Program-made: the position numbers and the translations under genes
Assembly (NCBI GenBank): GCA_022822205.1
Contig: JAJECC010000071.1
Location: 3,283 to 67,282, forward strand
Direction of reading: 5' to 3'
DNA length: 64,000 nucleotides
Source: Rhodospirillales bacterium
Lineage (GTDB): Bacteria > Pseudomonadota > Alphaproteobacteria > Rhodospirillales > UBA2165
Part shown: piece by piece, positions 6,232-9,235 of the stretch
How positions within the stretch are numbered: the first letter of the stretch is position 1
Layout of the letters: every line of letters starts with the position of its first letter
Notes under the pieces: model-generated
Databases searched by the model: none
What the model saw: the letters and a program-made list of their open reading frames with translations, nothing else
What the model was told of the DNA's origin: nothing

Positions 6232-6271
6232 CGGTCCCCGCCTACATTGCGCTGAACACCCGCGGCGTCGC
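6232..6271 (-). repeat. Copy 3 of the dienelactone hydrolase 3'-end repeat
   Basis: cggtccccgcctacattgcgctgaacacccgcggcgtcgc; reads ATPRVFSAM* on the minus strand versus ATLRVFSGM* in the gene. Confidence 0.8.
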
Positions 6272-6390
6272 ATCGTGCGGGCTCGCGCGTAAGGGGAATC
6301 ATGCTCCGCGCGTGACCGCGCGGGTGTTGGCAGGAATGTCGAAGTGCCGAAATCCCAATATCTCCTTCCTTCGGCAAAATCCTCTTCCGG

Positions 6391-6807
6391 CTAAACTGCC
6401 GAAGCCGTACCGGCCTCGGAGGATTGCGCCGCGGCGGCGAGGGCCCGGTCCAGCGTCGCCAACGGCAGGCGCAGGCGCAGGGCGAGTTCAAGATAGACGG
6501 CATCGTAGACGGACAGGCCGTACTCATCGGCGAGAGCGAGCGCGTCCCCCCAAACGCGGGATGTCGATACCGGGTCGATCTCAATGGGCAACGCTTCCAG
6601 ACTGGCGCAGATGCCGGGCCATTCGTCCGCGCGCAGCCGGCCCCGTTTGGTGGCGGCCAACAATACGCTGCCGACCTCGACCGGCCAGAGGGAGGGCACG
6701 AACGCGCGCCCGCCGACGAGGGAATCCCGCAAGCGATCCGTCTCCTCGGAAGCCTCGTCGGGAAACACCCATGCCATGGTTACCGAGCAATCGAGGACGA
6801 AGGCCAT
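6391..6807 (-). CDS. vapC: VapC (PIN domain) toxin
   Basis: FVLDCS, E(VGS), YDAVY and LATLD acidic PIN residues; overlaps the antitoxin stop. Confidence 0.9.
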   Translation of the reverse strand: MAFVLDCSVTMAWVFPDEASEETDRLRDSLVGGRAFVPSLWPVEVGSVLLAATKRGRLRADEWPGICASLEALPIEIDPVSTSRVWGDALALADEYGLSVYDAVYLELALRLRLPLATLDRALAAAAQSSEAGTASAV

Positions 6808-7049
6808 CAGCGCCTGCGCGCCTCCTCGACCATGCGGCGCACCGACAGCCCGCCCAGGCTGTGGGTTCGTTGGAACGCCTTCAGTTCGTCGATAGCGGAC
6901 CGCACCACGGCGTCGTCGCGCGGGCGGAACGGCACCAACTCCGCGACCGGGCGGTTGTGCCTGGTAATGACGAAGCGCTCCCCCGCCTCCACGCGCTGGA
7001 GCAGTTTGGGCAGATGGGTCTTGGCTTCGAATGCGCCGATCTCGGACAC
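6807..7049 (-). CDS. Phd/YefM-family antitoxin
   Basis: [35 protein letters not shown]; GAGAGG RBS before the GTG start. Confidence 0.9.
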
Positions 7050-7076
7050 GGCGTATGCCTCTCAGGTTAATCCCTC

Positions 7077-7218
7077 AAATTAAACCAGTCTTAGACTGGT
7101 CTAAACATCATGCGGTGTCAAGCGGAAGAGAATTCGGCGGAAGCGCGCCGCCACCGGGAAGCGCGGTCGAAATCCGGTCCCCCTACATCCCGCTGAACAC
7201 CCCGAGCGTCGCGGCCCG
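7077..7218 (-). repeat. Copy 2 of the hydrolase 3' end plus downstream promoter block
   Basis: 7077-7125 matches 9131-9179 at 40/49 ungapped; 7168-7218 matches 9181-9235; reads RAATLGVFSGM*. Confidence 0.85.
7084..7104. promoter_or_regulatory. Candidate TA operator (overlapping palindromes)
   Basis: ACCAGTCT-T-AGACTGGT and TTAGAC-TG-GTCTAA, about 35-55 bp upstream of the antitoxin. Confidence 0.6.
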
Positions 7219-7314
7219 CTGCGCGCATGTGGTCGGACGGCAGGCGGGGCGACGTGACATGGAGGCGATCCGGGCTCCGCCCGACGCCGGAGCCAACCGG
7301 ATCGATGCCGGGCC

Positions 7315-9162
7315 TTATCGGCTGGCCCTCGCCTTGTCCGGGTCTTCCCACCAGGTTTCGACCAGAATCCCGTAGAGGGGCGTGACGCCGGGCCGGCCGA
7401 ACCTGTCCCAATAGGCGACCCTGTCGCCCTCCAGATGATAGAGGGGAATGAAGTAGTGTCCCCATAGCAGCACCCTGTCCATGGCGCGGACGATGTCGAC
7501 GAATTCATCTCGGTCGCGCGCCTCGGTCATGAGGCCGATCAGCCTGTCGACGGCCGGGTTCCGTATCCCGGGATAGTTGCGCGTCCCCTCCTGCCCGGCC
7601 GCCTGGGCGCCCCAGTAGAACGCCTGCTCGTTCCCCGGGGACAGGGACATGCCCCAGCGGTAGACGATCATGTCGAAGTCGTAGTCGGTCAGCCTGTATT
7701 GATACTGCGACGTGTCGACGGTGCGGACCCGCGCCTCGACGCCCAGGCGCTTGAGGCCGCGGGCGAAGGTGAGGGCGATCTTCTCGTGCGCCGGATTCAC
7801 CAGCAGGATCTCGAACGCCATGGGCAATCCGTCCTTGGCCCGGCGCAGCGATCCGTCCCGCACTTCCCAACCCGCCTCGGCCAGCAAACGCTTTGCCGCC
7901 CGGAGGTTCGCCCGGGCGCCGCCGCCGGCCCCCGGCGGCCGGTACGGCGCTTCGAACACCTCGCGGGGCAGTTCCCGCCGGAAAGGCTCCAGAAGGCCGC
8001 GTTCACGGGCCTGGGGCACGCCGCCGGAGCCGAGTTCCGAGTTGTCGAAGATGCTGCCCGTGCGTTTGTAGGCGCCGTGCAGCAGCGTCTTGTTGATCCA
8101 GGCGAAGTCGAACGCATGCGCGAGCGCGTACCGGACCCGGCGGTCGGCGAACATCTCCCGCCGCGTGTTGAAAACCAGGGCGGACAGGCCCGAGGGCCGG
8201 CCGTGCGGCAGCCGTTCCAGCTTCACCCGGCCGTCCGCGACCGCCGGAAAGTCGTACGCGGTCGCCCAACGCTTGCCGGAAATCTCCAGCCGAAGGTCGT
8301 ACTCGCCGGCTTTGAAGGCCTCCATCATCACGTTGCCGTCGCGGTAGTAGTCGTAGCGGACGCGGTCGAAGTTGTGCTGCCCCCGGTTGATGGGCAGGTT
8401 CCGCCCCCAATAGTCGGGGTCGCGGCGATAGGTGATGCCGCGGCCCGGGTCCACGCTTTCGACGCGATAGGGGCCGGAGCCGACCGGCGGAACGAGGGTC
8501 GTCCGCTCGAACTCCACCGATTCGTAGTAGGACTTGGACAGGATCGGCATCAATCCCATGATCAGGGGCAGTTCGCGGTCCGGCGACGCGGCGTCGAAGA
8601 CGAACCGGATCGAGCGCGCGCCGGGCCGCTCGATGCGCCGGACCTGCCGGTAATACAGCCGGTGATTGGGCCGGCCGCGGTCCTTGAGGGTCTCCCAGGA
8701 GAAGACGACATCGTCCACGGTGACCGGCCGGCCGTCATGAAAGCGCGCTTCCGGCCTCAACACGAACGTGACGGACGAACGGTCGTCCGGCACCTCGATG
8801 GACTCGGCGATCAGGCCGTAGAGCGAGAACGGCTCGTCCCACGTCCGCTTCAGAAGGCTCTCGAAGACCAGGTGGCGTCCGCGCGCCGGCACGCCCTTGA
8901 TGATGAAGGGGTTGAGGCTGTCGAAGGTCCCGGTCACCGCGCGCCGAAGCTCGCCGCCCTTCGGCGCGTCGGGATTCACGTAGTCGAGATGGCGGAACCC
9001 GGATTCGTATTTGGGTTTCCCATGCATGGCGATGCCGTGGCTCTCAGCCGCCGCGGGATGCGCGCCGCCCGCGGCCAGAACCGCGACGAGCCAGACGAGC
9101 GCCGGCGCCGGCCGCCTCGGCGGACAATCAAAATTAAGCCAATTGCTGACTGGTCTAAACAA
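7315..9162 (-). CDS. YejA-like extracellular solute-binding protein (family 5), no permease adjacent
   Basis: HGIAMHGKPKY, YVNPDAPKGG, GTFDSLNP and RDGNV motifs. The only start that retains the signal peptide is TTG 9162. Confidence 0.85.
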   Translation of the reverse strand: MFRPVSNWLNFDCPPRRPAPALVWLVAVLAAGGAHPAAAESHGIAMHGKPKYESGFRHLDYVNPDAPKGGELRRAVTGTFDSLNPFIIKGVPARGRHLVFESLLKRTWDEPFSLYGLIAESIEVPDDRSSVTFVLRPEARFHDGRPVTVDDVVFSWETLKDRGRPNHRLYYRQVRRIERPGARSIRFVFDAASPDRELPLIMGLMPILSKSYYESVEFERTTLVPPVGSGPYRVESVDPGRGITYRRDPDYWGRNLPINRGQHNFDRVRYDYYRDGNVMMEAFKAGEYDLRLEISGKRWATAYDFPAVADGRVKLERLPHGRPSGLSALVFNTRREMFADRRVRYALAHAFDFAWINKTLLHGAYKRTGSIFDNSELGSGGVPQARERGLLEPFRRELPREVFEAPYRPPGAGGGARANLRAAKRLLAEAGWEVRDGSLRRAKDGLPMAFEILLVNPAHEKIALTFARGLKRLGVEARVRTVDTSQYQYRLTDYDFDMIVYRWGMSLSPGNEQAFYWGAQAAGQEGTRNYPGIRNPAVDRLIGLMTEARDRDEFVDIVRAMDRVLLWGHYFIPLYHLEGDRVAYWDRFGRPGVTPLYGILVETWWEDPDKARASR

Positions 9163-9235
9163 CGTGCGGTGCCAAGCGGCCGAAATCCGATCCAGCCCCC
9201 TACATGCCGCTGAACACCCGGAGCGTCGCCGCCCG
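9131..9235 (-). repeat. Copy 1: in-gene hydrolase 3' end plus downstream block
   Basis: Aligns with 7077-7218 and 6232-6271. Confidence 0.85.

Follow-up and report, generated by a model that had tools for sequence, protein, structure and literature searches.

The locus studied here raises the question of whether the 3' end of a dienelactone hydrolase (DLH) gene, which recurs twice beyond the gene itself, is a working site for the capture of small DNA cassettes or the scar of older events. The preliminary description of the 64-kb window (the whole stretch of DNA analysed) favoured the former: three gene-end copies bracketing two cargo cassettes, repeated site-specific capture and an integron-like hotspot. 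To answer this question, the repeats, the genes between them and the corresponding loci of related bacteria were analysed.

Three copies of the hydrolase gene end

All features of the locus lie on the minus strand. The DLH gene (9200..9880; 226 aa; Pfam PF01738) is intact and full length, matching positions 1-214 of the 217 in the Pfam DLH profile (E 2.5e-46). Its C-terminus fits the family consensus, as all 494 homologues at E<=1e-20 have the end ..RAA(V/T)LR(C/V)F.SM. Copy 1 of the repeat (A1, 9196..9236) comprises the last 12 codons of this gene, the stop and 4 nt; it is the true and functional 3' end of the intact gene, as expected of a target gene regenerated by the proximal repeat. Copy 2 (A2, 7179..7236; ..RAATLGVFSGM and stop) and copy 3 (A3, 6230..6283; ..ATPRVFSAM, stop and 10 nt past it) are pseudo-fragments of the same gene end, with a DLH-derived extent of ~7236-7179 and ~6283-6241, respectively, plus 6-10 nt past the stop. 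Compared over 41 nt, copy 1 is 93% identical to copy 2, and copy 3 is 76% identical to copy 2. The 31-nt core pattern CCTACATNNCGCTGAACACCCNNNGCGTCGC has exactly three matches in the window (6241-6271, 7182-7212 and 9199-9229), all on one strand, and no match in 100 dinucleotide-preserving shuffles even at 3 mismatches, confirming the three same-orientation copies noted before.

In the window, the array has its most complete form among the relatives, DLH-A1-[TA1..YejA]-A2-[TA2]-A3-t. A1 is followed by the remnant of a first phd-vapC toxin-antitoxin module (TA1, 9130..9195), a gene for a YejA-like periplasmic solute-binding protein (SBP_bac_5; 7315..9162) and a spacer, w (7237..7314), which lies 3' of the YejA stop and is kept in all relatives. 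A2 and A3 enclose a second, intact phd-vapC module (TA2, 6284..7177). A3 is followed by t (6120..6229), which contains a hairpin, GAACGGGCGCC..GCGCCTGTTC, and perhaps represents the DNA that once lay downstream of DLH. The far flank is a molybdopterin oxidoreductase gene (3940..6006) with Pfam matches, syntenic in all relatives. Pfam searches agree with the DLH, YejA-like and Phd-VapC identities first assigned. The layout recurs in the independent ENA scaffolds L010 and L011 as well as in Logan contigs crossing each junction, indicating that the three-copy structure is not an assembly artefact.

Copies 1 and 2 have ~66 nt more in common past the stop (9130-9195 versus 7077-7178, with a 41-nt insertion in copy 2). 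The sharing reported earlier is therefore real, but by its alignment the shared part belongs to phd-vapC, as its left flank and operator, and is not hydrolase sequence. Spacer w was also considered as a longer decayed DLH fragment; a first alignment of 7314-7222 was suggestive, yet on its own it scored no better than shuffles or random genomic segments, and a DLH origin is not demonstrable.

YejA is a resident gene

YejA is located between DLH and the molybdopterin oxidoreductase gene in every relative whose contig extends that far. The same gene order of DLH, decayed phd-vapC (TA1), YejA and Mo-oxidoreductase was found in ~15 loci, which argues that YejA is a fixed resident and not a cassette. 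Of the two cargo cassettes originally proposed, only the phd-vapC pair thus stands, as a discrete portable module of ~0.9 kb between copies 2 and 3.

The left boundary of YejA in the window results from a deletion. The native start of the gene, MQPMSHATHELDCPPRR, is seen in seven relatives (L003, L007, L008, L022, L031, L032 and L042); in the window the native RBS, the ATG and the first 10 codons are deleted, and the TA1 operator is joined to YejA codon 11, a fusion also present in L005. This fusion of the TA1 operator remnant to YejA explains why the sequence past copy 1 resembles that past copy 2. The remnant consists of a left flank, s, and an operator-like palindrome, o1, and ends at the deletion junction 9130/9129. 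In the same-species strain L022, it runs on through a phd1 that is intact and through 13 vapC1 codons to the native YejA. TA1 is gone or a fragment in all genomes, with phd/vapC remnants that are different in each of L001, L003, L004, L007, L008 and L022, and the interval between vapC1 and YejA has no homology to the right flank of TA2. The left end of YejA at 9129, the same in two arrangements, was rejected as a meaningful boundary, being the window's own deletion junction where relatives continue into the native upstream region.

The only in-frame YejA start in the window is TTG 9162, within the operator remnant, and gene callers place the start at ATG 9027, giving 570 aa without a signal peptide. 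A solute-binding-protein gene without its own start thus now stands behind a toxin-antitoxin operator. Metatranscriptome contigs cover YejA at 7394-7816.

TA2 is a portable toxin-antitoxin module

TA2 consists of a left flank with a terminator-like hairpin (7135-7153), a conserved TTGACA with a palindromic operator (7077-7125), phd (6807-7049), vapC (6391-6807) and a right flank (6284-6390). Its genes match PF02604 (PhdYeFM, 1.2e-11) and PF01850 (PIN, 7.7e-10) and form one operon, antitoxin then toxin, in which the phd stop (6807-6809) and the start codon of vapC have one base in common. The palindrome AGACCAGTC..GACTGGTTT upstream of phd is the putative operator. A homology search at E<=1e-15 gave 1815 homologues. 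Thirteen contigs encode an identical VapC product, and RNA contigs cover phd-vapC (6717-6957) as well as YejA and DLH.

TA2 is 87.9% identical in nucleotide sequence, non-coding flanks included, over 895 nt to a module from another bacterium (L033) that adjoins a TrwC relaxase and a DDE transposase. The limits of this homology are the limits of TA2 (7177-6284), which abut copies 2 and 3. Shorter nucleotide homology extends to modules in L035 and L038-L041, and elsewhere the islands that host the TA2 family bear integrases, a relaxase or IS elements. Judged from these homologies, TA2 is a discrete portable module. None of eight modules borne on mobile genetic elements (MGEs) contains a DLH-like core (best match 22-25 of 39), so the core was rejected as part of the module itself. 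Direct repeats flanking the MGE-borne modules were also sought and none was found, L033 included; the L033 module, with neither core nor flanking repeats, gives no clue to the enzyme. A search of a plasmid database returned only a weak Paracoccus vapC match.

TA1 and TA2 have the same junction of A with s in the same orientation, and phd1 is 96.3% identical to phd2. Every genome has lost the right end of TA1 by deletion. An attempt to date the duplication by comparing phd1 with phd2 was abandoned, as the identities (94-98%) are too close to order events.

Conservation and decay of the array in relatives

The locus was compared with ~15 related sponge-associated Rhodospirillales loci (L-numbered) and with metagenome runs (X-numbered); runs containing the locus were read as contigs, from which rare variants are lost. 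L031, L032 and L042 have orthologues of TA2, A3 and t at ~92-93% identity, the same as the flanks. A copy 3 orthologue is also present in L008, and t is common to L008, L031, L032 and L042, while L003, L004, L005 and L007 have poly-C plus GCACCTTCTC in its place. Two lineages ~8-10% apart have TA2 and copy 3 in common, suggesting that the array is old, vertically inherited and predates their split. Whereas the window species has a fresh copy 2, this copy has decayed or is missing in L031, L032 and L042. This could mean that the array of three repeats is younger than TA2, or that copy 2 arose as a by-product when the paralogues TA1 and TA2 recombined.

The relatives have the core in two places and no others, the end of DLH and the site of copy 3. 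The A3 of L008, L031 and L032 bears the lineage-specific CTT(A/G)GG of its own DLH gene. In addition, a cluster of 3 changes within 31 nt separates two A3 alleles from strains with 99.1-99.5% identity. As shown by this comparison of alleles, short sequence patches have evidently been swapped among the copies, keeping them similar to the live gene end.

TA2 is absent with three distinct junctions, in which 7264 is joined to 6261 (L008), 7243 through poly-C to 6119 (L003, L004, L005 and L007) and 7222 to 6318 (X9). Judged by these junctions, the losses are three different imprecise deletions and never core-to-core excision. Neither an empty DLH-A-t site nor an alternative cassette was found in the assembled genomes (~15 loci), which, together with the imprecise losses, speaks against the repeated site-specific capture first suggested. 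The comparison across strains proposed in the preliminary description did reveal relatives that differ, but the differences are deletions in a constant gene order of DLH, phd remnant, YejA and Mo-oxidoreductase. Moreover, 27 more distant DLH loci each have a single gene end and no second one, and the DLH end was rejected as a general target.

DNA beyond copy 3 and the search for a recombinase

In strains from the metagenome runs X9 and X11, other DNA takes over precisely where copy 3 stops (6241 and 6230, respectively). The ~30 letters read next in X11 close with an RBS-like AAAGG and ATG AAA AAG, and at least 971 nt of that contig do not align. In X7 and X9, a sequence like a decayed core plus t precedes the return to the window at 6206. 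The 30-nt ends of X9 and X11 have no match among the sequences retrieved for comparison. The departure at the end of copy 3 would fit continued site-directed insertion better than a static relic.

No match to Phage_integrase, resolvase or transposase families was found in the ~50 ORFs of the window, in agreement with the reported lack of an integrase nearby, and no recombinase was found in the syntenic flanks of the relatives. A tyrosine recombinase linked to the same core elsewhere had been suggested as something to look for; in viral contigs the long core has no match, and a 21-nt pattern (18 specified bases) has 3 chance matches. As for integron parts, the window has no intI and no attC-like structure, the repeats are DLH coding sequence, and TA2 has its own promoter, so the integron analogy fails. 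An inverted partial copy of the core is present at 6314-6339, 44 nt from copy 3. Together with copy 3 it was considered as an attC-like hairpin and rejected, since its stability, in L031, L032 and L033 as well as in the window, did not exceed that of shuffles (z -0.96 to +1.5); the inverted partner is not conserved in L031-L033.

Origin of the array

With moderate confidence, we interpret the array as a relic of insertion at the DLH end, a scar array resembling a CIME, which now evolves by homologous recombination and deletion and is not an active cassette-capture platform. The events may have begun in an ancestor of the sponge-associated Rhodospirillales clade, when DNA with the ~0.9-kb phd-vapC would have entered at the DLH end by recombination across the last ~45-58 nt of the gene and ~10 nt beyond. 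The agent could have been a recombinase in trans, one from a larger element since lost, or a Campbell-type single crossover. This would have regenerated the hydrolase frame (copy 1) and left the displaced end (copy 3) on the old downstream DNA, t. A second unit, added by tandem accretion or by unequal crossing-over between repeats, would have produced the arrangement now in the window. Lineage-specific deletions, as the comparison of relatives shows, then removed or fragmented TA1 everywhere and removed TA2 three times, with the window species retaining TA2 intact, conserved and transcribed. The copies exchange short patches, as the strain comparison shows. The primary insertion is read from the repeat architecture, an empty DLH-A-t site having turned up in none of the genomes.

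A different reading takes the DLH 3' end as a live attB at which a trans-acting tyrosine or serine recombinase serially captures small islets (YejA; phd-vapC), in an accretion array still turning over. Gene-end direct repeats do flank a discrete portable module with the gene restored, homologous modules occur in integrase-bearing islands, the DNA of X9 and X11 departs exactly at the repeat end, with X7 and X9 rejoining at 6206, and CIMEs and IMEs are well known to accrete at the 3' ends of genes (PMC5704250). Nevertheless, we regard this reading as unlikely. YejA is universal and the boundary upstream of it a deletion fusion, all losses of TA2 are imprecise, ~15 assembled loci offer neither an empty site nor another cassette, and the array is apparently old and inherited vertically; likewise, no recombinase was found in the 64 kb or the relatives' syntenic flanks, the 27 distant DLH loci have no second end, and the viral contigs have no core beyond the 3 chance matches. 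The probability is similarly low that a recombinase whose gene lies elsewhere in the symbiont genomes uses the ~55-nt DLH end as a working attachment site. Such an enzyme would mobilise minimal, integrase-less islets, including a 0.9-kb unit of toxin-antitoxin genes only. The strains of runs X7, X9 and X11 would carry one more insert, of a different kind, bounded by copy 3 and a fourth, decayed copy, and the whole would form a small accretion hotspot with its array stabilised by the toxin-antitoxin modules.

Tandem duplication alone, in which a segment from ~55 nt inside DLH through phd-vapC was copied by replication slippage or unequal exchange and the two copies then decayed in a complementary way, would make the repeats mere left ends of the duplicated segment. 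It accounts for TA1 and TA2 as paralogues with one A-s junction and orientation, for the ongoing exchange between copies, for the confinement of the repeats to the clade and for the lack of a recombinase. We consider it possible though doubtful, because copy 3 joins t and not the left flank of a toxin-antitoxin module, and duplication of an A-TA segment alone gives no terminal A next to other DNA. In addition, the limits of TA2 are those of an independent MGE-borne module, pointing to acquisition as a unit between repeats, and the vapC1-YejA interval is without homology to the right flank of TA2. A further reading, in which the core is a dispersed genomic repeat, structured RNA or terminator whose overlap with the DLH end is incidental, could be suggested by the inverted partial copy near copy 3, but it is effectively refuted. 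The three copies in 64 kb all lie at this locus, in line with the initial view of them as hydrolase ends rather than a dispersed repeat (REP, BIME or MITE), the relatives' cores are restricted to the two positions given above, and the depth of metagenome contigs over the cores shows no excess. Rfam has no match at E<=1 in 5900-10100 and the window contains no tRNA or tmRNA, which also led us to reject a structured RNA or tRNA as the target, and the hairpin is neither more stable than shuffles nor conserved.

Comparison with known systems

The closest parallel to the relic interpretation is provided by the CIMEs and tandem accretion described for ICESt1/ICESt3-related elements at the 3' end of the protein-coding gene fda in Streptococcus thermophilus (PMC5704250). 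In both cases same-orientation gene-end repeats (attL, internal att and attR at fda) separate decayed integrase-less inserts, the target gene is intact, and evolution proceeds via deletion and accretion. Unlike fda, the window has no known cognate integrase or ICE, and neither precise excision nor an empty-site form was observed; one "insert" amounts to no more than a 0.9-kb toxin-antitoxin module, the internal repeat is missing in a sister lineage, and YejA is not demonstrably foreign. The e14 and phage 21 prophages of Escherichia coli integrate in the 3' end of icd, supply a substitute end and leave a displaced pseudo-end on their far side. The window would match them in these respects; those elements, however, are prophages or remnants with an integrase, while the window has no phage gene or integrase and a shorter repeat. 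In the Vibrio superintegron, toxin-antitoxin cassettes lie between repeats and are thought to stabilise the array. Small toxin-antitoxin units between repeated sequences are likewise found here, but without intI or attI, with repeats that are the coding sequence of a neighbouring gene instead of attC palindromes, and with the unit's own promoter and operator.

The preliminary description knew of no report of the DLH family as a target, yet the prophage site attB-17 of Mycobacterium abscessus has been reported within MAB_3265, a dienelactone hydrolase family gene (PMC8092301). Although a DLH-family gene is the integration target there too, that organism is unrelated, its site holds full prophages with integrases, and no evidence links the two sites.

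If the relic interpretation is true, the locus would be an ordinary, well-documented case of a portable toxin-antitoxin module lodging at a gene end, duplicated via the repeats that its own insertion created, with erosion afterwards taking a different course in each lineage of an uncultured sponge symbiont. Integrase-less gene-end repeats would accordingly call for comparative data before being labelled a capture site. A live site, if true, would add a protein-coding attB and minimal islets of toxin-antitoxin genes only to the known cis-mobilisable elements. Compared with type II phd/yefM-vapC (PIN) modules on mobile elements, TA2 is alike in its antitoxin-first order, its 1-nt stop/start overlap and its upstream palindrome, and its close relatives also lie on ICE-, island- or IS-rich DNA. 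TA2 itself is thus ordinary, and only its place between host gene-end repeats is unusual.

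Three copies of the DLH 3' end

The dienelactone hydrolase gene (DLH, 9200-9880) lies on the minus strand together with a YejA-like SBP_bac_5 gene (7315-9162), phd (6807-7049), vapC encoding a PIN protein (6391-6807) and a molybdopterin oxidoreductase gene (3940-6006). The 31-nt core of the DLH end has exactly three matches in the 64 kb, all on one strand, at 9199, 7182 and 6241 (copies 1, 2 and 3, respectively), and no match in shuffled sequence even with three mismatches allowed, confirming the repeat noticed in the preliminary description. Over 41 nt, copy 1 shares 93% identity with copy 2, and copy 3 shares 76%. 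The Pfam match of DLH stops no more than three positions short of the profile end, which identifies copy 1 as the native end of the gene. The sharing of sequence past the stop codon, which had been proposed for the copies, extends over ~66 nt more in copies 1 and 2, copy 2 having an insertion of 41 nt, and over only ~10 nt in copy 3.

The public runs containing the window DNA are sponge metagenomes, and the nearest assembled genomes are Rhodospirillales MAGs. The same arrangement was found in the independent ENA scaffolds L010 (99.96% identity) and L011 (99.1%), and every junction is crossed by Logan contigs, showing that it is not an assembly artefact. In addition, low-depth sponge metatranscriptome data, available as contigs only, are identical or nearly identical to the window (0-3 mismatches per contig) and cover the phd-vapC junction (6717-6957), the 3' part of the YejA gene (7394-7816) and the 3' part of DLH (9199-9565).

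A portable phd-vapC module between copies 2 and 3

VapC belongs to a very large family, with 1815 proteins at E<=1e-15, and relatives with 81-90% amino-acid identity sit in mobile contexts, including one adjoining a TrwC relaxase, a DDE transposase and an S24 peptidase (L033), one with a tyrosine integrase 2 kb away (L035), and others on islands rich in TA modules that also carry integrases or IS66 (L036-L041). At the nucleotide level, L033 matches the window at 87.9% identity from 7177 to 6284, a span that takes in the non-coding left flank, operator, phd, vapC and right flank. This homology stops 1 nt short of copy 2 at one end; at the other it stops ~12 nt short of the copy 3 core, at the edge of the DLH-derived stretch (~6283). 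The intact module, TA2, is therefore a discrete ~0.9-kb unit between two DLH-end repeats, which supports this part of the earlier proposal. TA1, the decayed first module after copy 1, starts at the same junction. No DLH-like core (best 22-25 of 39) and no flanking direct repeats were found with the mobile-element-borne TA modules, indicating that the repeats belong to this locus and not to the module.

The promoter-phd-vapC part of TA2 is bracketed by 21-nt imperfect inverted repeats (7123-7143 and 6369-6389, 17/21), and L033 seems to have a similar pair. The left flank of TA2 also carries, upstream of the promoter, a terminator-like hairpin (7135-7153, minus strand; TGGCGGCGCGCTTCCGCCG plus a T-rich tail), which is present in L033, absent from the TA1 flank of L022, and could insulate the module from read-through.

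YejA and the remnants of TA1

Six species-level relatives from a genome scan (L003-L008) and contigs L001, L022, L031, L032 and L042 were compared with the window. The gene order DLH, YejA, Mo-oxidoreductase is common to all relatives whose contig is long enough, showing that YejA is not the captured cassette that had been suggested. Within the DLH-YejA interval, the remnants of TA1 vary between relatives. L022, a strain of the window's own species with ~98.7% identical flanks, retains an intact phd1 and vapC1 codons 1-13, followed by the native YejA upstream region; a phd residue of 75-150 nt is kept in L003, L004 and L001, and none is left in L007, L008, L031, L032 and L042. These relatives keep the native YejA start (ATG, MQPMSHATHELDCPPRR...). 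The window and L005 carry a deletion that has fused YejA, from codon 11 onward, to what remains of the TA1 operator (9130|9129), and this fusion explains the likeness between the sequences past copies 1 and 2. The window YejA is left with only a TTG start within the old operator, and gene callers choose the ATG at 9027, giving a protein without a signal peptide.

In this segment (9027-9162; L005, 10700-10790), the native RBS, the ATG and the first 10 codons are gone and the fusion to the operator remnant is in frame; the signal peptide is preserved only by starting at the TTG at 9162, inside the operator palindrome. YejA might now be under Phd-VapC control from TA2, or else be non-functional. 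The gene is an orphan SBP_bac_5 gene, adjoined by neither a permease nor an ATPase gene. Another SBP_bac_5 gene lies 7 kb away (16502-18103) and is followed, a few kb further on, by BPD_transp_1 permease genes.

Other variation was observed beside DLH. In Logan contig L018 (1-1972), DLH, copy 1 and the TA1 left flank with its operator-like palindrome are joined to a phd-vapC sequence 100% identical to TA2 of the window (7064 to 6357); this contig is either a genuine recombinant that has an intact TA beside DLH or an assembly chimera formed via shared k-mers. REP-like G+C-rich palindromic elements (e.g. CCCCTCTCCCCCTTCTTCAGGGGGAGAGGG) have invaded the DLH-YejA spacer of several relatives (L001, 10690-10900; L004, 10700-10800; L006, 5010-5183; L031, 4545-4700; L042, 10690-10900), adding to the plasticity of this interval. 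A called GntR/FCD regulator gene (218 aa) lies between DLH and an NMT1-type binding-protein gene in L001 (9172-9828), and L003 and L004 contain a corresponding stretch that fails to align with the window. This gene is missing in the window (about 9900-10000), L005, L008 and L031, representing a second presence/absence difference beside DLH.

Inheritance and loss of TA2 and exchange between copies

TA2, copy 3 and the DNA after it ('t', 6120-6229) occupy the same position in L031, L032 and L042, a lineage ~8-10% divergent from the window, with about 92-93% identity, like their flanks, indicating that TA2 is old and vertically inherited. Copy 2 is missing or heavily decayed in these three. Genomes without TA2 have lost it in three different ways, none of them by a core-to-core junction: at 7264|6261 in L008, from 7243 through poly-C and GCACCTTCTC to 6119 in L003, L004, L005 and L007, and at 7222|6318 in the strain in run X9. 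No empty site with a single DLH end joined to 't' was found among the genomes compared, a different gene between the repeats was not seen in any assembled genome, and a second DLH end is lacking from 27 more distant DLH loci, for which 0.4-10 kb of sequence past the gene was available.

Copy 3 in L008, L031 and L032 has the lineage-specific synonymous codons of its own genome's DLH end (CTT AGG, or CTT GGG in L031); that of L042 lacks those of its own DLH. Two copy-3 alleles exist in the window's species, differing by three clustered substitutions in 31 nt where the surrounding identity is 99.1-99.5%, and one of them is a perfect DLH end. Such sequence patterns show that the DLH-end copies exchange sequence. 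In copy 2, 93% identity to DLH across the core gives way abruptly to sequence without significant similarity immediately upstream, which likewise fits a patch refreshed from copy 1 via the neighbouring TA1/TA2 homology.

Origin of the array

An intact gene end, inserted DNA and a displaced gene end on the apparent old downstream region form a classic 3'-end integration scar. CIMEs, decayed elements flanked by att sites that form tandem accretions (PMC5704250), have the same architecture as the DLH locus. We infer that one integration event occurred at the DLH 3' end in the ancestor of the clade, through either site-specific recombination or homologous crossover of the Campbell type, and that the second unit would have arisen by accretion or by unequal exchange between repeats. 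The comparisons show the later steps, deletions and patchy exchange, directly. Searches of about 50 ORFs covering the 64-kb window revealed no integrase, resolvase or transposase, only metabolic, transport, regulatory and glycosyltransferase families, and a few ORFs had no match at all. The syntenic flanks of relatives are likewise free of recombinase genes, and the core is absent from viral contigs but for three chance matches. The DLH family had been regarded as an undescribed target, yet the dienelactone-hydrolase-family gene MAB_3265 of Mycobacterium abscessus, a case unrelated to this locus, has been reported as a prophage attB (PMC8092301), so the family is not unprecedented as a target.

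The preliminary description had instead favoured an active integron-like hotspot that took up YejA and the TA pair separately, a reading that receives no support from the assembled genomes. In its favour, the DNA past copy 3 diverges from the window precisely at the stop codon (6241) in run X9 and precisely 10 nt past it (6230), at the repeat end, in run X11, and X7 and X9 rejoin the window at 6206 after a stretch resembling a decayed core plus 't'. The X9 and X7 contigs contain 249 nt of such divergent DNA after copy 3 and 739-797 nt of it before 6206. The X11 contig has at least 971 nt outside its aligned part, and the ~30 letters visible past copy 3 end in an RBS-like AAAGG, then ATG AAA AAG. 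In these runs, the DNA after copy 3 may represent an additional insert, with a decayed fourth copy beyond it.
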